Assembly: GCF_055900595.2 (NCBI RefSeq)
Contig: NZ_CM148325.1
DNA length: 64,000 nucleotides
Direction: 5' to 3' (one strand)
The notes beneath the pieces are model-generated. The model did no database searches. It was not told the origin of the DNA and worked only from the letters and a program-made list of their open reading frames with translations. Each line of letters begins with the position of its first letter. Positions within the stretch are counted from its first letter, which is position 1. This document shows positions 4,058 to 56,846 of the stretch, in pieces. The translations under genes and the position numbers were made by a program.

Positions 4058-4113
4058 AAACGGCGGCAGAGCAGTCACGGAGTAAAACTGATACCGCTAA
4101 ACGTCACCAGAAA
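4058..4113 (-). ncRNA. dicF: DicF small RNA (ftsZ-targeting sRNA of Qin-type prophages)
   Basis: Minus-strand sequence ttttctggtgacgtttagcggtatcagttttactccgtgactgctctgccgccg followed by a T-run; near-identical to DicF as I recall it. Confidence 0.8.
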
Positions 4114-9669: not shown

Positions 9670-9823
9670 TTTTATATTGGCGAGGTGACGTGAGTTAAGT
9701 AGAATTGCTGCGGGTGCTTGAGGCTATCTGCCTCAGGCATGAACACCAACGGCAGATAGAGAAAAGCCCCAGTTAACATTACGCGTCCTGCAAGACGCTT
9801 AACATTAATCTGAGGCCAATTTC

Positions 9824-10036
9824 ATGCTAGACACATGTAGGTTAGCCTCTTACGTGCCGGAAGGCAAGGAGAAGCAGGCTATGAAGCAGCAAAAGGCGAT
9901 GTTAATCGCCCTGATCGTCATCTGTTTAACCGTCATAGTGACGGCACTGGTAACGAGGAAAGACCTCTGCGAGGTACGAATCCGAACCGGCCAGACGGAG
10001 GTCGCTGTCTTCACAGCTTACGAACCTGAGGAGTAA
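9824..10036 (+). CDS. mok: mok-like reading frame overlapping hok
   Basis: 70-aa frame that starts upstream of and reads through hok, as in hok/sok loci. Confidence 0.5.
   Translation: MLDTCRLASYVPEGKEKQAMKQQKAMLIALIVICLTVIVTALVTRKDLCEVRIRTGQTEVAVFTAYEPEE
9881..10036 (+). CDS. hok: Hok/Gef-family type I toxin
   Basis: 51 aa MKQQKAMLIALIVICLTVIVTALVTRKDLCEVRIRTGQTEVAVFTAYEPEE, Hok family (HokD/RelF-like as I recall it). Confidence 0.85.
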   Translation: MKQQKAMLIALIVICLTVIVTALVTRKDLCEVRIRTGQTEVAVFTAYEPEE

Positions 10037-19053: not shown

Positions 19054-19416
19054 ATTAATATTAAATCGGATTATTTTTAGCGCTGAATGTGAAATTTAAA
19101 TAAAAAGGACTCTTCCATGAGTCAAAATCCTTGAAATCTTAAGGGTAAGATAAAAGGTCATTAGACAGAATGACACGTTTTATTAATAAATAAAGCTATT
19201 GTTTCATTCGTGTGTTTTTCTTTACAAAAGTAATCCTTGCTATGGTTGGTTAATCATGCGTTAATGGTGTTCTGGTTTGTTACAAAATTATCTGAAGCAG
19301 TCATTGTTATAATTTTATTATTTGTACCTCTTGAGATTTCCTTGTTGGTTTTTCTCTCTGATATTTTTTTTCGGACCATTCTGCCCAAGGGCTAACTTCT
19401 TCAAAAGGTAATAATG

Positions 19417-19629
19417 ATGTCTAACAAAATGACTGGTTTAGTGAAATGGTTTAACCCTGAAAAAGGTTTTGGTTTCATCACGCCGAAAGATGGTAGCAAA
19501 GATGTGTTTGTCCATTTCTCAGCTATTCAGAGCAACGATTTCAAAACGTTAACTGAGAATCAGGAAGTCGAATTTGGTATTGAGAACGGACCTAAAGGCC
19601 CCGCGGCTGTTCATGTTGTGGCACTTTGA
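19417..19629 (+). CDS. cspI: Cold shock protein (CspI-like)
   Basis: [38 protein letters not shown]... cold-shock domain. Confidence 0.9.
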
Positions 19630-19828
19630 GGTAGATAATATTACAAACCATATTCACTTTAGATGCCCGTGTTGCCATGGTTCTCAGTATAGAACATCAT
19701 CTTTTGATGTTTCTGACAGGAATCCTTTCGGGGCAAAATGTATCTTTTGTAAATCAATGATGATTACATTTGATAATATTTCACAATACTTAAATGTTAG
19801 CCGTCTATCGTTAGATTTAAGAAAGTGA
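19613..19828 (+). CDS. Possible small Cys4 zinc-ribbon protein
   Basis: [10 protein letters not shown]...CIFCKS motif; weak RBS; start overlaps the csp stop. Confidence 0.3.
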
Positions 19829-36447: not shown

Positions 36448-36507
36448 TGAAAAACGTTTTATGTGAAACCGCCTCCGGGCGGTTTTGTCGTTTATGGAGC
36501 GTTAGGA

Positions 36508-39500
36508 ATGGGTAAAGGCAGCAGTAAGGGGCATACTCCGCGCGAAGCGAAGGACAACCTGAAGTCCACGCAGTTGCTGAGTGTGATCGATGCCATCAGC
36601 GAAGGGCCGGTTGAAGGTCCGGTAGATGGATTAAAAAGCGTGCTGCTGAACAGTACGCCAGTGCTGGACATTGAGGGGAATACCAACATCTCCGGCGTCA
36701 CGGTGGTGTTCCGGGCCGGTGAGCAGGAGCAAACACCGCCGGAGGGATTTGAATCCTCCGGCTCCGAGACGGTGCTGGGTACGGAAGTGAAATACGACAC
36801 GCCGATCACCCGGACCATCACGTCGGCAAACATTGACCGACTGCGTTTTACCTTCGGCGTGCAGGCACTGGTGGAAACCACCTCAAAGGGGGACAGGAAT
36901 CCGTCGGAAGTCCGCCTGCTGGTTCAGATACAACGTAACGGTGGCTGGGTGACGGAAAAAGACATCACCATTAAAGGCAAAACCACCTCACAGTATCTGG
37001 CCTCGGTGGTGGTGGGTAACCTGCCGCCGCGCCCGTTCAATATCCGGATGCGCAGGATGACGCCGGACAGCACCACAGACCAACTGCAGAACAAAACGCT
37101 CTGGTCGTCATACACCGAAATCATCGATGTGAAACAGTGCTACCCGAACACGGCACTGGTTGGCGTGCAGGTGGACTCGGAGCAGTTCGGCAGCCAGCAG
37201 GTGAGCCGTAATTATCATCTTCGCGGGCGCATTCTGCAGGTGCCGTCGAACTATAACCCGCAGACGCGGCAATACAGCGGTATCTGGGACGGAACGTTAA
37301 AACCGGCATACAGCAACAACATGGCCTGGTGTCTGTGGGATATGCTGACCCACCCGCGCTACGGCATGGGGAAACGTCTTGGTGCGGCAGATGTGGATAA
37401 ATGGGCGCTGTATGTCATCGGCCAGAATTGCGACCAGTCGGTGCCGGACGGCTTTGGCGGTACGGAGCCGCGCATCACCTGTAACGCTTACCTGACCACA
37501 CAACGTAAGGCGTGGGATGTGCTCAGTGATTTCTGCTCGGCGATGCGCTGTATGCCGGTATGGAGCGGGCAGACGCTGACGTTCGTGCAGGACCGACCGT
37601 CGGATAAGGTGTGGACCTATAACCGCAGTAATGTGGTGATGCCGGATGATGGCGCGCCGTTCCGCTACAGCTTCAGCGCCCTGAAAGACCGCCATAATGC
37701 CGTTGAGGTGAACTGGATTGACCCGGATAACGGCTGGGAGACGGCAACAGAGCTTGTGGAGGACTCGCAGGCCATTGCCCGTTACGGTCGTAACGTCACG
37801 AAGATGGATGCCTTTGGCTGTACCAGCCGGGGGCAGGCACACCGCGCCGGGCTGTGGCTGATTAAAACGGAGCTGCTGGAAACGCAGACGGTGGACTTCA
37901 GCGTGGGTGCCGAAGGGCTTCGCCATGTGCCGGGCGATGTTATTGAAATCTGCGATGATGACTATGCCGGTATCAGCATCGGTGGTCGCGTGCTGGCGGT
38001 GAACAGCCAGACCCGGACGCTGACGCTCGACCGTGAAATCACGCTGCCATCCTCCGGCACCACGCTGATAAGCCTGGTTGACGGTGAGGGTAATCCGGTC
38101 AGCGTGGAGGTCCAGTCCGTCACCGACGGCGTGAAGGTGAAAGTGAGCCGTGTTCCTGACGGCGTTGCTGAATACAGCGTGTGGGGGCTGAAGTTGCCGA
38201 CGTTGCGCCAGCGCCTGTTCCGCTGCGTGAGTATCCGTGAGAACGACGACGGCACGTATGCCATCACTGCCGTGCAGCATGTACCGGAGAAAGAGGCCAT
38301 CGTGGATAACGGGGCGCACTTTGACGGTGACCAGAGCGGCACGGTGAATGGTGTCACGCCGCCAGCAGTGCAGCACCTGACCGCAGAAGTCACTGCAGAC
38401 AGCGGGGAATATCAGGTGCTGGCGCGATGGGACACACCGAAGGTGGTGAAGGGCGTGAGCTTCCTGCTTCGCCTGACCGTGGCAGCGGATGACGGCAGTG
38501 AGCGGCTGGTCAGCACGGCCCGGACGACGGAAACCACTTACCGCTTCACACAACTGGCTCTGGGGAACTACAGGCTGACAGTCCGGGCAGTAAATGCGTG
38601 GGGGCAGCAGGGCGATCCGGCGTCGGTATCGTTCCGGATTGCCGCACCGGCAGCGCCGTCGCGGATTGAGCTGACGCCGGGCTATTTTCAGATAACCGCC
38701 ACGCCGCATCTTGCGGTTTATGATCCGACGGTACAGTTTGAGGTCTGGTTCTCGGAAAAACGGATTGCTGATATCAGGCAGGTTGAAACCAGCGCGCGTT
38801 ATCTTGGTACGGCGCTGTACTGGATAGCCGCCAGTATCAATATCAAACCGGGTCGTGATTATTACTTTTATATCCGCAGTGTGAACACCGTCGGCAAATC
38901 GGCATTCGTGGAGGCTGTTGGTCGGGCGAGCGATGATGCGGAAGGTTACCTGGATTTTTTCAAAGGCCAGATAACCGAATCCCATCTCGGCAAGGAGCTG
39001 CTGGAAAAAGTCGAGCTGACGGAGGATAACGCCAGCAGACTGGAGGAGTTTTCGAAAGAGTGGAAGGACGCCAGTGATAAGTGGAATGCCATGTGGGGCG
39101 TCAAAATTGAGCAGACCAAAGACGGCAAACATTATGTCGCGGGTATTGGCCTCAGTATGGAGGATACAGAGGAAGGCAAACTGAGTCAGTTTCTGGTTGC
39201 CGCCAATCGTATCGCGTTTATTGACCCGGCAAACGGGAATGAAACGCCGATGTTTGTGGCGCAGGGCAACCAGATATTCATGAACGACGTGTTCCTGAAA
39301 CGCCTGACGGCCCCCACCATTACCAGCGGCGGTAATCCTCCGGCATTTTCCCTGACACCGGATGGGCGGCTGACGGCGAAAAATGCCGATATCAGCGGTA
39401 ACGTGAATGCGAACTCCGGGACGCTCAACAACGTCACGATTAACGAGAACTGTCGGGTTCTGGGAAAACTGTCCGCGAACCAGATTGAAGGCGATCTCGT

Positions 39501-39903
39501 TAAAACAGTGGGCAAAGCTTTCCCCCGGGACTCCCGTGCACCGGAGCGGTGGCCATCAGGGACCATTACCGTCAGGGTTTATGACGATCAGCCGTTTGAC
39601 CGGCAGATTGTTATTCCGGCGGTGGCATTCAGCGGCGCTAAACATGAGAGAGAGCATACTGATATTTACTCCTCATGCCGTCTGATAGTGCGGAAAAACG
39701 GTGCTGAAATTTATAACCGTACCGCGCTGGATAATACGCTGATTTACAGTGGCGTTATTGATATGCCTGCCGGTCACGGTCACATGACGCTGGAGTTTTC
39801 GGTGTCAGCATGGCTGGTAAATGACTGGTATCCCACAGCAAGTATCAGCGATTTGCTGGTTGTGGTGATGAAGAAAGCCACCGCAGGCATCAGTATCAGC
39901 TGA
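36508..39903 (+). CDS. Host specificity protein J (central tail fibre)
   Basis: Near-identical to lambda J over most of its length as I recall it; C-terminal about 150 aa diverge. Confidence 0.9.
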
Positions 39904-39970: not shown

Positions 39971-40570
39971 ATGCGTAAAGTTTGTGCAGCCATTTTGTCC
40001 GCAGCCATCTGTCTGTCCGTATCCGGTGCGCCTGCATGGGCATCTGAACATCAGTCCACGCTGAGCGCGGGGTATCTTCATGCCTCGACGAACGTTCCCG
40101 GCAGCGATGATCTTAACGGGATTAACATGAAATACCGTTATGAGTTTACGGACACACTGGGGCTGGTGACGTCATTCAGCTATGCAGGAGACAAGAATCG
40201 CCAGCTTACCCGTTACAGCAATACCCGCTGGCATGAAGATTCCGTGCGTAACCGCTGGTTCAGCGTGATGGTGGGGCCGTCTGTGCGCGTGAATGAATGG
40301 TTCAGCGCGTATGCGATGGCGGGTATGGCTTACAGCCGTGTGTCGACTTTTTCCGGGGATTATCTCCGCGTAACTGACAATAAGGGGAAAACGCACGATG
40401 TGCTGACCGGAAGTGATGACGGTCGCCACAGCAACACGTCTCTGGCGTGGGGAGCTGGCGTGCAGTTTAACCCGACCGAATCCGTGGCCATTGATATTGC
40501 TTATGAAGGCTCCGGCAGTGGTGACTGGCGCACTGACGGTTTCATCGTGGGTGTCGGTTATAAATTCTGA
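39971..40570 (+). CDS. lom: Lom-like outer-membrane protein (Ail/Lom family)
   Basis: Signal peptide plus beta-barrel, ends with aromatic residue; lambda Lom-like. Confidence 0.85.
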
Positions 40571-40596: not shown

Positions 40597-40623
40597 AGCC
40601 CGCCGGTTCAGGCGGGCTTTTTG
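40597..40623 (+). terminator. Rho-independent terminator after lom
   Basis: agcccgccggttcaggcgggcttttt. Confidence 0.7.
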
Positions 40624-41330
40624 TGCACAGAAAACCCCCAGCTAGGCTGGGGGTTCCGGAAAGCTTTCAGCTTTGAGCCAGTTATTAAAACCCCTTTTGA
40701 TTTGTTAAAACACCTTGCGGTCTGGCAACTGCAAGTGTCAAACAAGAAATCAAAAGGGGGTCCCAATGGGGGACGAAAAGAGCTTAGCGCACACCCGCTG
40801 GAACTGTAAATATCACATAGTTTTTGCGCCGAAATACCGAAGACTGGCGTTTTACGGAGAGAAGCGTAGGGCGATAGGCAGTATTTTGAGAAAGCTGTGT
40901 GAGTGGAAAAGCGTACGGATTCTGGAAGCAGAGTGCTGCGCAGATCATATCCATATGCTTGTGGAAATCCCACCCAAAATGAGCGTATCCGGCTTTATGG
41001 GATATCTGAAAGGGAAAAGCAGTCTGATGCTTTACGAGCAGTTTGGGGATTTGAAATTCAAATACAGAAACAGGGAGTTCTGGTGCCGAGGGTACTATGT
41101 CGATACGGTGGGTAAGAACACGGCGAAGATACAGGACTACATAAAGCACCAGCTTGAAGAGGATAAAATGGGGGAGCAGTTATCGATTCCATATCCGGGC
41201 AGCCCGTTTACGGGCCGTAAGTAACGAAGTTGAATGCAAATGTCAGATCGTATGCGCCTGTTAGGGCGCGGCTGGTAACAGAGCCTTACAGGCGCATTTG
41301 AAAAACCTCCGGCTATGCCGGAGGATATTT
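40621..41330 (+). mobile_element. IS200-family insertion sequence (about 710 bp, boundaries approximate)
   Basis: Left-end hairpin cccccagctaggctggggg, second stem-loop over the RBS, tnpA, right-end hairpin cctccggctatgccggagg. Confidence 0.8.
40766..41224 (+). CDS. tnpA: IS200 transposase TnpA (HUH Y1 transposase)
   Basis: MGDEKSLAHTRWNCKYHIVFAPKYRR...HIHMLVEIPPKMSVS matches IS200 TnpA. Confidence 0.9.
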   Translation: MGDEKSLAHTRWNCKYHIVFAPKYRRLAFYGEKRRAIGSILRKLCEWKSVRILEAECCADHIHMLVEIPPKMSVSGFMGYLKGKSSLMLYEQFGDLKFKYRNREFWCRGYYVDTVGKNTAKIQDYIKHQLEEDKMGEQLSIPYPGSPFTGRK

Positions 41331-41345
41331 ATTTGTGGAGTGGAT

Positions 41346-43751
41346 ATGGCAGCAGTAAAAATCTCAGGTGTGCTGAAAGATGGTGCGGGAAAACCAATAC
41401 AGAACTGCACTATTCAACTGAAGGCAAAGCGTAACAGCACCACGGTACTGGTGAACACGGTGGCTTCTGAAAATCCGGATGAAGCCGGACGTTACAGCAT
41501 GGATGTTGAGTATGGCCAGTACAGCGTCACCCTGCTGGTTGAAGGTTTTCCGCCTTCACATGCCGGGACCATTACCGTCTATGAAGGCTCCAGACCAGGT
41601 ACGCTGAATGATTTTCTCGGTGCCATGACGGAAGATGATGTCATGCCGGAGGCATTGCGTCGTTTTGAGGCAATGGTGGAAGAAGTGGCACGCAACGCCG
41701 AAGCCGCCTCTCAGAGCGCAGCGGCGGCAAAGAAATCCGAAACTGCAGCGGCATCATCAAAGAACGCGGCGAAAACCTCAGAAACGAATGCAGCTAATAG
41801 TGCACAGGCGGCAGCGACCTCAAAGACTGCATCGGCAAACTCCGCGACAGCAGCCAAAAAATCAGAAACCAACGCGAAAAATAGCGAGACAGCCGCAAAG
41901 ACGAGCGAAACCAACGCAAAGTCCAGCCAGACGGCAGCGAAAACCAGCGAAACGAATGCCAAAGCCAGTGAAACTGCGGCAAAAAACAGCCAGGTTGCAG
42001 CAGCCCAAAGCGAGAGCGCGGCAGCCGGTTCTGCGACTTCAGCAGCTGGATCAGCAACTGCTGCGGCTAACAGCCAGAAAGCTGCGAAGACGAGTGAAAC
42101 TAACGCAAAGTCCAGCCAGACGGCAGCGAAGACCAGCGAAACGAATGCCAAAACCAGCGAAACTGCGGCGAAAAACAGTCAGGATGCAGCAGCCCAAAGC
42201 GAGAGTGCTGCAGCTGGTTCTGCAAGCGCGGCGGCTGCTTCTGCCACTGCATCAGCTAACAGTCAAAAAGCAGCAAAAACCAGTGAAACCAACGCAAAGG
42301 CGAGCGAGACTGCGGCGGCGAACTCGGCGCAAGCATCGGCAGCAAGCCAGACAGCAGCTAAAGCAAGTGAAGACGCAGCCAGAGAGTATGCAAGCCAGGC
42401 AGCGGAGCCGTATAAACAAGTTTTGCAGCCGTTGCCCGATGTGTGGATACCGTTTAATGATTCACTGGATATGATTACGGGCTTTTCGCCATCATATAAA
42501 AAAATTGTTATTGGCGACGATGAAATAACAATGCCTGGCGACAAGATTGTAAAGTTTAAACGCGCATCGAAAGCAACTTACATTAATAAATCTGGTGTGC
42601 TGACAGAGGCTGCCATTGACGAGCCACGATTTGAACGTGATGGCCTGCTTATTGAGGGGCAAAGAACTAACCTGCTAATCAATTCAACAAATCCGACTAA
42701 ATGGAACAAGTCGTCAAATATGATCTTAAGTGCATCAGGTGTAGATGATTTCGGATTCCAGTACGCAAAATTTACATTAAAACCAGAAATGGTAGGGCAA
42801 ATTTCAGCGATTAACATAGTAACCGTTTCCGGCAGTAAAGGTTTTGATGTAACAGGCGGAGAAAAGTATGTAACCATATCATGCAGGGTGCAAAGTGGCA
42901 CTCCAAATTTAAGATGCCGATTACGATTTGAAAACTATGATGGTTCTACCTACACATTCTTAGGTGACGCTTACTTAAATACGACAGATTTATCTATTGA
43001 TAAGACGGGTGGTGCCGCTAATCGCATTACTGCAAGGGCTGTTAAAGATGAAGCAAGCAAATGGATCTTTTTTGAGGCGACAATTAAGGCACTTGATACA
43101 GAAAATATGATAGGTGGAATGGTTCAGTATGCCCCGGCAAAAGGAGTGGGCACTGGCGCGGATGATTATATTTATATTGCGACCCCTCAAGTTGAAGGTG
43201 GGGCGTGCGCTTCATCGTTTATTATAACAGGCGCATCCCCTGTAACACGCGCCAGCGATATTGTGACGGTCCCCATTTCTCTAAATTGGTGCAATCCCGC
43301 TATTAGTTCATTAGCAGAAGTTAATACCAATTGGGATGAATCGCCAAACAAAGAAGGTAGCGCACGTATTCTTAATATTTCCACTACGGGAGATACAACT
43401 GAAATTGCAGATGAAAGTTATATGTATTTGGGGTATACATCTTTGGGAGCACGCGCAATCATTACAAATGGTAAAGGCACTAAAATAGAATATAAAAGCG
43501 TTATAGAACGACCAGAGAGAAAAAGCATTATCGGCTTTAGATTCACAGAAAGTCGAGAATTGTGTGTTGTGGTTAACGGTAATATTGGTGCTAAGGTAGT
43601 TTCTCCTTATAAAAAACACAAATATACAGGAGGCTTCATTAATATTGGTGGTCAATCATCATCCGGCAACCGTCACCTATTTGGACACGTTCGAAATCTG
43701 CGTATTTGGCACAAGGCATTGACTGATGCTCAGATGGGGGAGTCAATCTAA
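41346..43751 (+). CDS. Side tail fibre protein (Stf-like)
   Basis: N-terminus MAAVKISGVLKDGAGKPIQNCTIQLKAKRNSTTV matches Stf; Ala/Ser/Thr-rich repeats; divergent C-terminal domain. Confidence 0.85.
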   Translation: MAAVKISGVLKDGAGKPIQNCTIQLKAKRNSTTVLVNTVASENPDEAGRYSMDVEYGQYSVTLLVEGFPPSHAGTITVYEGSRPGTLNDFLGAMTEDDVMPEALRRFEAMVEEVARNAEAASQSAAAAKKSETAAASSKNAAKTSETNAANSAQAAATSKTASANSATAAKKSETNAKNSETAAKTSETNAKSSQTAAKTSETNAKASETAAKNSQVAAAQSESAAAGSATSAAGSATAAANSQKAAKTSETNAKSSQTAAKTSETNAKTSETAAKNSQDAAAQSESAAAGSASAAAASATASANSQKAAKTSETNAKASETAAANSAQASAASQTAAKASEDAAREYASQAAEPYKQVLQPLPDVWIPFNDSLDMITGFSPSYKKIVIGDDEITMPGDKIVKFKRASKATYINKSGVLTEAAIDEPRFERDGLLIEGQRTNLLINSTNPTKWNKSSNMILSASGVDDFGFQYAKFTLKPEMVGQISAINIVTVSGSKGFDVTGGEKYVTISCRVQSGTPNLRCRLRFENYDGSTYTFLGDAYLNTTDLSIDKTGGAANRITARAVKDEASKWIFFEATIKALDTENMIGGMVQYAPAKGVGTGADDYIYIATPQVEGGACASSFIITGASPVTRASDIVTVPISLNWCNPAISSLAEVNTNWDESPNKEGSARILNISTTGDTTEIADESYMYLGYTSLGARAIITNGKGTKIEYKSVIERPERKSIIGFRFTESRELCVVVNGNIGAKVVSPYKKHKYTGGFINIGGQSSSGNRHLFGHVRNLRIWHKALTDAQMGESI
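41901..42278 (+). repeat. Tandem direct repeat (about 189 bp x2) inside stf
   Basis: acgagcgaaaccaacgcaaagtccagccagacggcagcgaaaaccagcgaaacgaatgcc... repeated with few substitutions. Confidence 0.75.
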
Positions 43752-44032
43752 TGAAAGATTTAACACTCAAATTTGCCGACAGGGCCGACTTTTCGGCTTT
43801 TATGGGAAGTATTGGCTATTATAATGACGAGTCGATGCAGGATGATATTCTGATTGATGTGATAGGTAACGTGTACAAAGAAACCGGAGAGCTGACTGAA
43901 GATGGCGAACCGGTATGTGTTAAGGAAGATGGATATTTTGTAAACGTGCGCATCATTAAGGATACGCAAATATCGTCATTATTCGATGAATACGCGGTTG
44001 CTGTTGAGCATCAACTTCGTGGCTGGATGTGA
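43751..44032 (+). CDS. Hypothetical tail-fibre-associated protein (93 aa)
   Basis: ORF starting at the stf stop. Confidence 0.5.
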   Translation: MKDLTLKFADRADFSAFMGSIGYYNDESMQDDILIDVIGNVYKETGELTEDGEPVCVKEDGYFVNVRIIKDTQISSLFDEYAVAVEHQLRGWM

Positions 44033-44041
44033 GGTAGAGAA

Positions 44042-44746
44042 ATGGCTACATCAACAGTAATTCCGGGAGACATCACCACGCTGAAGGGAGATGTTAGTAA
44101 AGCAAAGGAAGATATTTCCTCTATTAACGGAAAAGTATCAACGCTTCAGACTGATATGGCCAGTGCAAAGCAGGATATCAGCACCAGATACACAAAAACT
44201 GAAGTTGATAATAAGCTGAAAAACAAAGTGGAAGTGAACGATCTGGAAAGTGGTCGTTATGGCGGAGATTTTTACCCGCTGACTGGCCGTGAAGCGTTTT
44301 ATTTATGGGGATTGGGCACAACTACAGCGGCGGCAAATCTTTATCTTAATCCTGACCCTGCAATTTCGTCTGTGCTGCGGTCAACATCGTCTATCCGCTA
44401 TAAACATTCAGTAGAGACGATAGATTCAGAGCACGCCGATCTCATTTTCAGGATGCGCCCTGTGTGGTACAGGTCGCAATGCGAAAATGACAGGCGTGAC
44501 TGGGGATTCTATGGATTGATTGCCGAGGAAGTTGGAGAAATTGCCCCTCAGTTTGTTCACTGGCGACCAGCCAACGAAGATGATGCACCGGAAACCATTT
44601 CCAGCAATGGCCTTGTTGCCGAAGGTGTAATGTACGAACGTCTGGTTGTTCCACTGATTCACCATATCCAGAAGCTGACTGAAAGAGTTGATGAACTTGA
44701 GTCAGAATTAAAGTTGTTATCCGTTTCCCGAAGCGATATCGGATAA
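44042..44746 (+). CDS. Tail-fibre-related protein with C-terminal chaperone-like (S74-type) domain
   Basis: N-terminal coiled-coil; C-terminal GFYGLIAEEVGEIAPQFVHWRP resembles the intramolecular chaperone domain of fibre/spike proteins. Confidence 0.5.
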   Translation: MATSTVIPGDITTLKGDVSKAKEDISSINGKVSTLQTDMASAKQDISTRYTKTEVDNKLKNKVEVNDLESGRYGGDFYPLTGREAFYLWGLGTTTAAANLYLNPDPAISSVLRSTSSIRYKHSVETIDSEHADLIFRMRPVWYRSQCENDRRDWGFYGLIAEEVGEIAPQFVHWRPANEDDAPETISSNGLVAEGVMYERLVVPLIHHIQKLTERVDELESELKLLSVSRSDIG

Positions 44747-44756
44747 AGGAGGCGTA

Positions 44757-45050
44757 ATGGATATAACACCTTTCCTTCATGCACTTTGTGCTGTGGCTGC
44801 GCAGGTACTGGTTGGTCTTTTTACCGGAAACTGGGCTTACGGGGCGATAGCTGGTTGTACGTTCTTCATTGCGCGTGAACATACCCAGGCAGAATATCGC
44901 TGGATTGAAATGTTCGGGCATGGCAAGCGTATGAATATGCCGTGGTGGGGCGGTTTTGATCCGCGTGCGTGGGATGTGGCAAGCCTGATGGATTTTGCTG
45001 TGCCGGTGGTGGCGTGTCTGCTGGTCTGGCTGTTGGTTAATCGTGGGTGA
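44757..45050 (+). CDS. Small membrane protein (97 aa, 2 TM)
   Basis: RBS AAGGAGG before the ATG; two hydrophobic helices. Confidence 0.5.
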   Translation: MDITPFLHALCAVAAQVLVGLFTGNWAYGAIAGCTFFIAREHTQAEYRWIEMFGHGKRMNMPWWGGFDPRAWDVASLMDFAVPVVACLLVWLLVNRG

Positions 45051-45277: not shown

Positions 45278-45868
45278 TTATATGTCAGGTGTCTGAAGTT
45301 TTGCTTTGGCTCTTAAAATGGTTTGCCGCGAGGTTTTGAATTCCCGGGCAATGGCACTTATACTTACACCTGACTTAATCCGTTCGAATACCACCTGTTT
45401 CTGTTCTTCATTTAACACAGGTGGTCGACCAAAACGTTTCCCTGCGCCCCGGGCTCTTACTATCCCGGAATGAGTGCGTTCAAGTAAAAGGTCTCGTTCA
45501 AATTCAGCGACTGCTGAAATTACTTGCATCATCATTTTTCCTGTTGGACTGGTCAGGTCAATGCCCCCCAATGCTAAGCAATGCACTCTGATACCTGTTT
45601 CGGTCAGTTGTTCCACTGTTTTCCTGATATCCATTGCATTACAACCAAGGCGATCCAGTTTTGTCACAATCAATTGATCACCACATTTCAGGCGAGCAAG
45701 CAACCGGTTAAAACCAGGACGCTCACTGGTTGCTGCTGAGCCGCTAATGTGTTCTTCGATTATTTGCTGAGGTTTGATTTTAAAACCTGCACTTTCGATT
45801 TCCCGGCGTTGATTTTCGGTGGTCTGATCCAGCGTTGATATCCGACAGTAAGCAAAAATTCGAGACAT
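45278..45868 (-). CDS. pin: Pin-type serine DNA invertase
   Basis: [29 protein letters not shown]... matches PinQ/PinR as I recall them. Confidence 0.9.
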
Positions 45869-56532: not shown

Positions 56533-56577
56533 GCTCCGTTTAACATTCATTGAGAAAACTGATGCTACTGTGTCAAC

Positions 56578-56677
56578 GATCCGTTATCAGTGCAGGAAAA
56601 TGCCTGTTAGCGTAAAAGCAAAACACAAATCTATCCATGCAAGCATTCACCGCCGGTTTACTGGCGGTTTTTTTTCG
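56578..56677 (+). ncRNA. mgrR: Candidate MgrR small RNA (boundaries approximate)
   Basis: Intergenic position between dgcZ and mgtS; ends at intrinsic terminator ccgccggtttactggcggtttttttt. Confidence 0.45.
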
Positions 56678-56750
56678 CCGTCATAAAAATCAGGCCCCTT
56701 GTACACAGTTGTAACAAGGGGCCGGTTAGGTGAGGGATTATCTCCGTTCA

Positions 56751-56846
56751 TTAGTCATCCCATTTGTGGCTGAAATACGCGGCCAGAAAACCAGAAAATA
56801 AAATTATTCCCAGTACGGCCATAAAAACATTCATATTACCCAGCAT
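56751..56846 (-). CDS. mgtS: Small membrane protein MgtS (YneM), 31 aa
   Basis: Minus-strand MLGNMNVFMAVLGIILFSGFLAAYFSHKWDD; not in the ORF track because of size. Confidence 0.8.
   Translation of the reverse strand: MLGNMNVFMAVLGIILFSGFLAAYFSHKWDD

Follow-up and report, generated by a model that had tools for sequence, protein, structure and literature searches.

The side tail fibre gene and its surroundings

The window, a stretch of 64,000 nucleotides from contig NZ_CM148325.1 (assembly GCF_055900595.2), carries on the plus strand an intact prophage side tail fibre (Stf-type) gene of 801 aa at positions 41346–43751, which opens with the ATG at 41346 in the list of open reading frames. The N-terminal part of the product is a collar/attachment domain (PfN, PF08400; aa 3–132, positions 41352–41741, plus strand) that was identified by Pfam with an E-value of 5.5e-67. 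Residues 3–95 also match the side-fibre collar domain in the Ur-lambda structures PDB 9E7M and 9MGH (Yu et al. 2025, PMC12617516) with an E-value of 8.4e-49, and over aa 3–117 lambda Stf and the Stf of the window share 86% identity. The position of gpJ is taken by an open reading frame of 1146 aa (36463–39903), followed by lom (39971–40570, plus strand; PF06316 Ail_Lom, E = 9.3e-120) as the upstream neighbour of stf, which starts at 41346. An IS200 element sits 12 bp upstream of stf and might interfere with late transcription reading through into it. The resulting lambda-like order J-lom-stf also occurs in the annotated E. coli Ch1 and in phage IdasGreatGrand. By N-terminal domain and gene position, the predicted product of 41346–43751 is a lambda-type side tail fibre. 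At least 80% of stf is covered in about 129 complete E. coli genomes, with 99.0–99.7% identity among the full-length matches listed.

The distal part of the protein is of a different kind. Residues 435–636 (42648–43253, plus strand) match the 'head spike fiber' type family NF048003 (GTA_spike_fiber, NCBIfam; E = 1.8e-16), and at the DNA level the tail fibre genes of several phages, tuinn, swan01, and EC195 among them, are 85–87% identical to this part. Family scans of Stf yielded this match in place of a gp37-like distal tip, and found no Tfa chaperone gene downstream of stf; of the downstream open reading frames, one encodes 93 aa without a family match and the other 234 aa that include a Peptidase_S74 chaperone domain. 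Given a distal part of the NF048003 type and no Tfa gene found, the kinship to lambda Stf is limited to the N-terminal half. The distal half of lambda gpStf, in contrast, is gp37-like and binds OmpC (PMC12617516), and that of the window Stf is unrelated to it.

A heptad-repeat shaft with a 189-bp tandem duplication

The collar is followed by an uninterrupted array of 33 heptads of the form S-x-x-A-A-x-x (aa 124–354; 41715–42407, plus strand), delimited by its heptad position profile and resembling a PCoil-type coiled-coil shaft. Serine occupies the first position in 32 of the 33 heptads and alanine the fifth in 30; the fourth is alanine in 24 and either alanine or asparagine in 31. Alanine makes up 35.7%, serine 18.3%, and threonine about 12% of aa 120–360, and the GC content of the repeat region is 56% compared to 47% for the stf gene. 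A low-confidence AF2 monomer model of aa 1–420 (mean pLDDT 53, pTM 0.24) is helical over aa 99–226 and 233–357 and folds back at the Gly-containing heptads around aa 227–232.

Proximal coiled coils (PCoil) have been described for the E. coli prophage tail fibres EPclA-D, where they are α-helical by CD, trimeric by SEC-MALLS, and differ in length by multiples of seven residues (Ghosh et al. 2012, PMC3368898). The shaft in the window shares with PCoil the position directly after PF08400 (PfN), the Ala/Ser-rich low-complexity composition, a common A-x-x-A/S-x-x-S heptad, and length differences in multiples of seven. It differs in its extent, with 231 aa of heptads compared to 116 aa for the EPclD examples listed, and in being followed by a distal part of the head-spike-fibre type rather than by collagen repeats. 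Ur-lambda gpStf consists of a collar (residues 1–91), a linker, and a proximal coiled coil (residues 102–393; PMC12617516); the window Stf has a homologous collar, followed as in Ur-lambda by a linker and what is probably a long proximal coiled coil, and a gene that likewise lies after J and lom. By analogy, the shaft is probably a trimeric PCoil.

A first-pass annotation of the window had proposed a tandem duplication of about 189 bp inside stf. The duplication was recovered at 41901–42089 and 42090–42278, with both units in frame 0 of the gene that starts at 41346. As also proposed, the units encode in-frame Ala/Ser/Thr-rich shaft repeats. Their description as near-identical holds for the protein, where 57 of 63 residues agree, and is generous for the DNA, where 160 of 189 nt (84.7%) do. 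TRF reported a period of 189 with 2.3 copies, 83% matches, no indels, and a score of 604 over 41883–42317, and an independent repeat search found a 189-nt pair at 83%. In the register starting at 41883, unit 1 spans 41883–42071 (plus strand; 189 nt, 63 aa, nine heptads; aa 180–242) and unit 2 spans 42072–42260 (plus strand; aa 243–305), with 85.2% nucleotide identity between the two. The true extent is slightly larger than the annotated 41901–42278, because unit 2 is followed by a partial third copy of the first 2.7 heptads of the unit (42261–42317, plus strand), 45 of whose 57 nt are identical to the start of unit 2.

Identity between the units is unevenly distributed, at 95 of 105 nt in the left part and 66 of 84 nt in the right part (41883 register). 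The units are most alike at 41913–41989 (plus strand), where unit 1 agrees in register with unit 2 without a mismatch over runs of 29, 21, and 11 nt; this stretch has no unit-diagnostic sites and is the likely crossover zone. TRF and repeat search further identified a 21-nt sub-repeat, the length of one heptad, that underlies the DNA of the shaft, so that the 189-nt unit equals nine 21-nt copies. Self-identity at a lag of 189 nt was 0.852; every other multiple of 21 nt gave 0.41–0.61, and no remaining lag exceeded 0.40. Shuffling the 33 heptad blocks 5000 times, which leaves the 21-nt period intact, gave best nine-heptad tandem matches with a mean of 0.544 (sd 0.036) and a maximum of 0.688. 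The duplication is thus beyond chance, even against a periodicity-preserving null. Since the unit comprises exactly nine heptads, adding or removing one leaves the gene in frame and the heptads in register.

Age, constraint, and copy number among alleles

In 88 two-unit alleles, unit 1 and unit 2 of the same allele had a mean nucleotide identity of 85%, while between alleles identity was 96.6% for unit 1 against unit 1 and 96.1% for unit 2 against unit 2. The duplication is therefore not recent: the units are 15% diverged within an allele, and each is 96–97% conserved across the 88 loci. Between unit 1 and unit 2, dS was 0.67–0.86 (about 0.7–0.9) with a dN/dS of 0.05–0.09, and in the stf frame 20–23 differences were synonymous compared to 6–8 non-synonymous ones. 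This substitution pattern indicates strong purifying selection on both units. Judged from the sequence comparisons, the two-unit form in the window represents an old, common, and stably inherited allele class rather than a fresh or unstable event. About 970 complete E. coli genomes have a match to at least 80% of the region 41600–42500, within which the two-unit shaft lies, and isolated phages, 2G7b and Tritos among them, carry the two-unit shaft as well.

As a measure of shaft length we used the spacer between two fixed anchor motifs, RRFEAMVEEVARNAE and QPLPDVWIPFNDSLDM. The frequencies of copy numbers rest on the best 120 protein clusters and on the fetched loci, and the query favoured two-unit alleles in the locus sample. 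Among these 120 clusters, 48 had a spacer of 241 aa and 50 one of 178 aa. Single-unit alleles were thus represented by 50 of the best 120 protein clusters, and in addition by phage IdasGreatGrand and loci L092–L096; a three-unit allele with a spacer of 304 aa was found in locus L072. A second IMG/VR scan with a single-unit protein as query again returned two-unit loci almost exclusively, with L083 and L084 as the informative exceptions. The expectation that the shaft repeats can expand or contract was borne out, as one-, two-, and three-unit alleles all occur, most of the single-unit ones checked at the DNA level reading as hybrids.

Further variants lacked one, two (in two separate events), four, seven, eight, or eleven heptads, and the spacer classes of 304, 241, 234, 227, 213, 192, 185, 178, and 164 aa differ by whole heptads throughout. 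Because the DNA itself repeats every 21 nt, the preponderance of whole-heptad steps is in part imposed by the sequence and alone is no proof of selection. Five variants deviated from the heptad rule (-4, -5, -12, -30, and -41 aa), each occurring once in the set examined; either the preservation of phase is not absolute, or these five are assembly errors. Long-period internal duplications in the Ala/Ser region were found in 20 of 109 distant representatives (each at least 300 aa long), with periods that were all multiples of 7 aa (21 to 140) and identities that in some cases reached 98–99%.

The junctions of the single-unit alleles were mapped with 36 diagnostic sites. Five of six such alleles (L001 and L092–L095) turn from unit-1 type to unit-2 type between 41912 and 42017, and the sixth, L096, has a different 63-aa deletion. 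The alignment gap of IdasGreatGrand relative to the window lies at 41970–42158. Most single-unit alleles checked at the DNA level thus appear to be hybrids of a unit-1 left part and a unit-2 right part. The middle unit of the three-unit allele L072 is a mosaic, 92% identical to the first unit and 87% to the third.

Copy number and C-terminal tip type were not linked in the alleles compared. One, two, and three units were found with the same tip cluster, indicating that shaft length varies independently of receptor specificity, and the two-unit shaft occurred with at least 13 tip clusters.

Origin and significance of the shaft module

Very probably, a module of nine heptads (63 residues) in the coiled-coil shaft of this lambda-type side tail fibre was duplicated in tandem and in frame long ago. 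Misalignment of the units would allow copies to be gained or lost, through either replication slippage or unequal homologous recombination, with the exchange likely occurring in the most similar stretch at approximately 41913–41989. Events that break the heptad phase would mostly be purged by selection. Based on coiled-coil geometry, each unit should add about 9 nm (63 residues at approximately 0.148 nm) to the rigid proximal shaft, and an extra unit would move the receptor-binding tip further from the tail. Copy number may in this way affect fibre length or adsorption.

A different history is possible, if doubtful: the units may never have been duplicated in place, and unequal or illegitimate recombination may have joined two diverged single-unit alleles, the common single-unit form being ancestral. 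The diagnostic sites in the right halves of single-unit alleles are all of the unit-2 type, with none intermediate, a pattern that symmetrical divergence of the two copies from a common ancestor would not predict. In the same direction, the divergence between units (15%) far exceeds that between alleles (3–4%), and mosaic exchange is rampant in stf. However, none of the alleles combined a single unit whose right half is purely of the unit-1 type with a normal right flank, and L083 and L096, which carry unit-1-type sequence, nevertheless keep pieces of unit 2, indicating that they derived from two-unit alleles. Such an origin would in any case alter only the history of the repeat, not its nature or its present changes in copy number.

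We regard as improbable a reading in which copy number acts as an adaptive ruler, setting how far the tip reaches according to how deep the host O-antigen or capsule layer is, with the polymorphism kept by selection. The free combination of one to three units with one tip cluster and of the two-unit shaft with at least 13, as well as the strong purifying selection on both copies, would fit such a role. However, neutral recombination in a tolerant spacer predicts the same pattern, and the locus sample is skewed towards two-unit alleles by the query. The more specific proposal that the number of modules, from one to three, has been selected as a 'reach' setting, matched to O-antigen or capsule thickness and evolving independently of the receptor-binding tip, appears slightly less probable still. 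If it were true, the heptad-exact architecture would be maintained for ease of length switching.

That the duplication is confined to this genome and prone to collapse, being either recent and unstable or an artefact of assembly, is scarcely credible. Assemblers frequently get tandem repeats of such length wrong, and many of the homologues in databases are 'partial' proteins from short contigs, but the units differ at 28–29 of 189 nt, depending on the register, with dS as given above; the two-unit arrangement and its unit-specific differences recur in 88 independent loci; about 970 complete genomes have the match over 41600–42500 noted above; and the isolated phages 2G7b and Tritos also carry the two-unit arrangement. 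We therefore rejected this explanation on the contrast between divergence of the units and their conservation across loci. Equally remote is a constraint by an overlapping gene or a structured RNA instead of the fibre protein, since the stop-free frames that cross the repeat (41635–42474 on the plus strand in another frame, 41711–42151 and 41794–42057 on the minus strand) are expected in GCN-rich Ala/Ser codon runs with the elevated GC content noted above, the differences between units are overwhelmingly synonymous in the stf frame and would scramble any other, on which ground a gene in another frame or strand was rejected, and an Rfam scan of the whole window gave no family match in the repeat.

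The Stokescottia tail protein and PhiR41_1 Stf, among fibres of T5-like and other phages, share SETNAK-type heptad arrays and the post-shaft sequence QPLPDVWIPFNDSLDM with the window Stf. PhiR41_1 Stf has the same two-unit arrangement with a 63-aa period and is 84% identical over aa 176–419. In contrast, both proteins have N-terminal attachment domains other than PF08400, and the Stokescottia protein has internal repeats of 21 aa and 25 aa rather than the 63-aa unit. Length change by in-frame gain or loss of repeats is familiar from deletions and duplications in the lambda gpH tape measure and from the collagen-like repeats in host-specificity proteins of Streptococcus thermophilus phages; for the tape measure the effect on length has been proven experimentally. 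These proteins and folds are unlike a side tail fibre. Heptad-stepped variation of shaft length is already known in kind, since PCoil domains whose lengths differ by multiples of seven residues were described in 2012. A 63-residue module in one, two, or three copies was not found in the portion of PMC3368898 available to us.

A repeat of this kind belongs to the ordinary make-up of the coiled-coil shaft in lambda-type side tail fibres, and the main value of the finding lies in correct annotation, as the 189-bp units and their 21-bp sub-repeats are spots where short-read assembly and automated annotation can err. The series of one, two, and three units provides natural, phase-preserving shaft lengths that could be used in adsorption tests or for engineered fibres. 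The occurrence of this shaft and tip in phages with other attachment domains illustrates modular exchange.

A nine-heptad tandem duplication in the Stf shaft

Within stf, TRF returned a single period-189 array (2.3 copies, 83% matches, zero indels) with nested 21- and 42-nt periods. Its true extent is 41883-42317, since a partial third copy lies directly 3' of unit 2 (unit 1, 41883-42071; unit 2, 42072-42260). A repeat search likewise found a 189-nt pair (83%), together with further repeat families at spacings that are multiples of 21 nt. As the entire region has 21-nt periodicity, we used a strict null in which heptad blocks were shuffled. In 5000 shuffles, the best nine-heptad tandem match was at most 0.688, compared to an identity of 0.852 at lag 189 and 0.41-0.61 at every other multiple of 21. 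The tandem duplication of about 189 bp proposed in the first-pass annotation was thus confirmed by TRF, pairwise identity, lag and shuffle tests. The segments 41901-42089 and 42090-42278 both start in stf frame 0, as had been proposed, and are identical at 57/63 residues and 160/189 nt. Their described near-identity therefore holds for the protein but less so for the DNA, where similarity is uneven (in the register from 41883, 95/105 nt in the left part and 66/84 nt in the right part). Long stop-free ORFs overlap the repeat in another frame (41635-42474, +) and on the other strand (41711-42151 and 41794-42057, -). Because the unit differences are synonymous in the stf frame, these ORFs are most simply explained by the run of GCN-rich Ala/Ser codons.

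Residues 124-354 (41715-42407) form 33 heptads without interruption, with Ser at position 1 in 32, Ala at position 5 in 30 and Ala/Asn at position 4 in 31 of them; the 189-nt unit comprises exactly nine. The Ala/Ser/Thr-rich character ascribed to the shaft was borne out by the composition of residues 120-360 (Ala 36%, Ser 18%, Thr 12%). Ghosh et al. 2012 (PMC3368898) describe the PCoil of E. coli prophage fibres as a low-complexity Ala/Ser-rich segment immediately after PfN, the PF08400 N-terminal domain, with a loose A-x-x-A/S-x-x-S heptad. By their account it is alpha-helical by CD, trimeric by SEC-MALLS and a thick rod in rotary-shadowing EM, and its length differs among proteins by multiples of seven. 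In Ur-lambda gpStf, Yu et al. 2025 (PMC12617516) assign residues 102-393 to a "proximal coiled-coil domain", which a short linker separates from the collar. At the sequence level the window shaft has the properties of a PCoil domain. A helical shaft is supported, and by analogy with the published homologues it would be trimeric. An AF2 monomer model of low confidence (mean pLDDT 53) places helix over residues 99-226 and 233-357. The helix breaks and folds back at residues 227-232 (about 42024-42041), in the Gly-containing heptads SESAAAG SATSAAG of unit 1, whose unit 2 counterparts have fewer Gly. This break may reflect modelling as a monomer or a genuinely flexible point of the shaft.

Variation in unit number and its history

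Shaft length was determined as the spacing of two fixed anchor motifs flanking the shaft. Among the best 120 protein clusters, the spacing was 241 aa (two units) in 48 and 178 aa (one unit) in 50. One unit also occurs in the isolated phage IdasGreatGrand, and the IMG/VR locus L072 has three (304 aa), the middle one 92% identical to the first and 87% to the third. The existence of one-, two- and three-unit alleles in nature therefore bears out the suggestion that the repeats expand and contract. Other length classes were -1, -2 (two separate events), -4, -7, -8 and -11 heptads. Five variants among the homologues of residues 120-360 were not multiples of a heptad: -12 (P0036), -4 (P0049), -30 (P0070), -5 (P0080) and -41 aa (P0087). 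Each occurred once in the examined set, and most are incomplete and come from short contigs; they may be tolerated coiled-coil stutters or assembly or sequencing errors. In a set of 109 distant representatives of the family, each 300 aa or longer, the Ala/Ser-rich region was absent from some and reached about 600 aa in others. Long-period internal duplications, some 98-99% identical, occur in 20 of them, and all have periods (21 to 140 aa) that are multiples of seven.

We recovered 88 two-unit alleles as DNA, including that of the window. Unit 1 and unit 2 of the same allele were on average 85.2% identical (range 79-92%), compared to means of 96.6% for unit 1 and 96.1% for unit 2 between alleles, so the two-unit arrangement predates the diversification of these alleles. 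The unit differences in the window are mostly synonymous (dS 0.67-0.86, dN/dS 0.05-0.09), which places both copies under strong purifying selection as protein. The arrangement is widespread: at least 80% of window 41600-42500 is matched in about 970 complete E. coli genomes. For the whole gene, coverage reaches 80% or more in about 129, the full-length matches listed being 99.0-99.7% identical.

Junctions were mapped in six single-unit alleles using 36 sites at which the two-unit consensus differs between unit 1 and unit 2. Five alleles carried unit-1 bases in their left part and unit-2 bases in their right part. Their switch zone at 41912 to 42017 (before 41990 in L092-L094, after it in L001 and L095) overlaps the most similar stretch of the units, with in-register exact matches of 29, 21 and 11 nt. 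The sixth, L096, has a distinct 63-residue deletion further right. Misaligned units that slip or undergo unequal homologous exchange would be expected to leave such hybrids. The pattern fits the common single-unit form as either a deletion derivative or the ancestral state, of which we consider the ancestral state unlikely.

A mosaic fibre gene in a probable lambdoid prophage

The ORF (41298-43751, +) has a likely ATG start at 41346 preceded by GGAG, giving a product of 801 aa. Pfam assigns residues 3-132 to PF08400 (prophage tail fibre N-terminal; E 5.5e-67). Residues 3-95 match a chain of PDB 9E7M/9MGH (E 8.4e-49), identified in the source paper as the Ur-lambda tail tip complex and side-tail-fibre collar domain (PMC12617516), and residues 3-117 are 86% identical to lambda Stf by tblastn. 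Upstream lie a 1146-aa ORF in the gpJ position and lom (PF06316, E 9.3e-120), in an order matching the annotated chromosome of E. coli Ch1 and phage IdasGreatGrand. Residues 435-636 carry the NCBIfam "head spike fiber" domain, and the DNA of the distal half shares 85-87% identity with the tail fibre genes of phages including tuinn, swan01 and EC195; this half is unlike lambda. The earlier designation as side tail fibre thus holds for the attachment and shaft half, whereas the tip is a different module. The protein resembles lambda-type Stf in its N-terminal half but not in the gp37-like tip/Tfa feature, so it is related to lambda Stf as a mosaic and is not its orthologue from end to end. The 99.7%-identical Ch1 gene (L002 8001-10406) is a RefSeq pseudogene 'missing C-terminus' ending at residue 668, whereas the window ORF is open through residue 801; the call looks like an annotation artefact from the mosaic C-terminus.

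An IS200 element of about 711 bp (about 40623-41333, +) separates the lom terminator hairpin from the stf ribosome-binding site, 12 bp upstream of the ATG. It carries tnpA (40766-41224; Y1 transposase, PF01797, E 7.9e-37) and STnc490 (40633-40756; Rfam IS200 5' sRNA family, 146 bits). It is absent at Ch1 and at the other related loci with gene maps viewed, where about 65 bp separate lom from the start of stf. Late transcripts reading through into stf might be stopped by the terminal hairpins of the element. Downstream (43751-45050, +) are a 93-aa ORF matching no family, a 234-aa protein with a Peptidase_S74 intramolecular-chaperone domain, possibly a second small fibre, and a 97-aa ORF; a Tfa chaperone gene is not among them. 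L092 carries a tandem double of the 93-aa/S74 pair, and in phage Stokescottia (L097) the fibre gene has a similar pair behind it, a 92-aa hypothetical and then a tail fibre gene. The intervals 4061-4112 (-), 9712-9886 (+), 19259-19675 (+), 45278-45868 (-) and 56544-56757 (+) together contain Rfam matches to DicF, sok, a cspA-type thermoregulator and STnc560 and one ORF of 196 aa. Because of these matches, the ORF's position, which is that of pinQ in Ch1, and the homologous Ch1 prophage adjoining ydfK and ydfJ, the probable home of stf is a lambdoid prophage inserted in an Escherichia chromosome at the Qin (ydfJ) site.

Probable shaft exchange and a possible role of module number

When 88 complete genes were clustered by their C-terminal 200 residues, 13 tip types emerged. 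All 13 are found on the two-unit shaft, and the largest cluster includes alleles of one, two and three units. In this sample, which was biased to two-unit alleles, shaft length is therefore not tied to receptor specificity. In phage PhiR41_1 (L098 1988-3781), a non-PF08400 N-terminus is followed by the same two-unit shaft and post-shaft sequence, homology beginning at about window residue 176, immediately before unit 1. The T5-like Stokescottia (L097 2144-4516) combines SETNAK heptad arrays with the same post-shaft sequence as the window Stf. Shaft and tip appear to travel as a cassette among attachment domains.

In these sequences, a nine-heptad module is duplicated with reading frame and heptad phase kept. 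Modules would be gained or lost by unequal recombination or replication slippage, each adding about 9 nm of shaft (63 residues x about 0.148 nm), and phase-breaking events would be purged. Module number may affect adsorption; that selection maintains it as a "reach" setting, independently of the tip, we regard as very doubtful. Whole-heptad variation in PCoil length has already been published, and the one-, two- and three-unit series of the 63-residue module is a detail within it.
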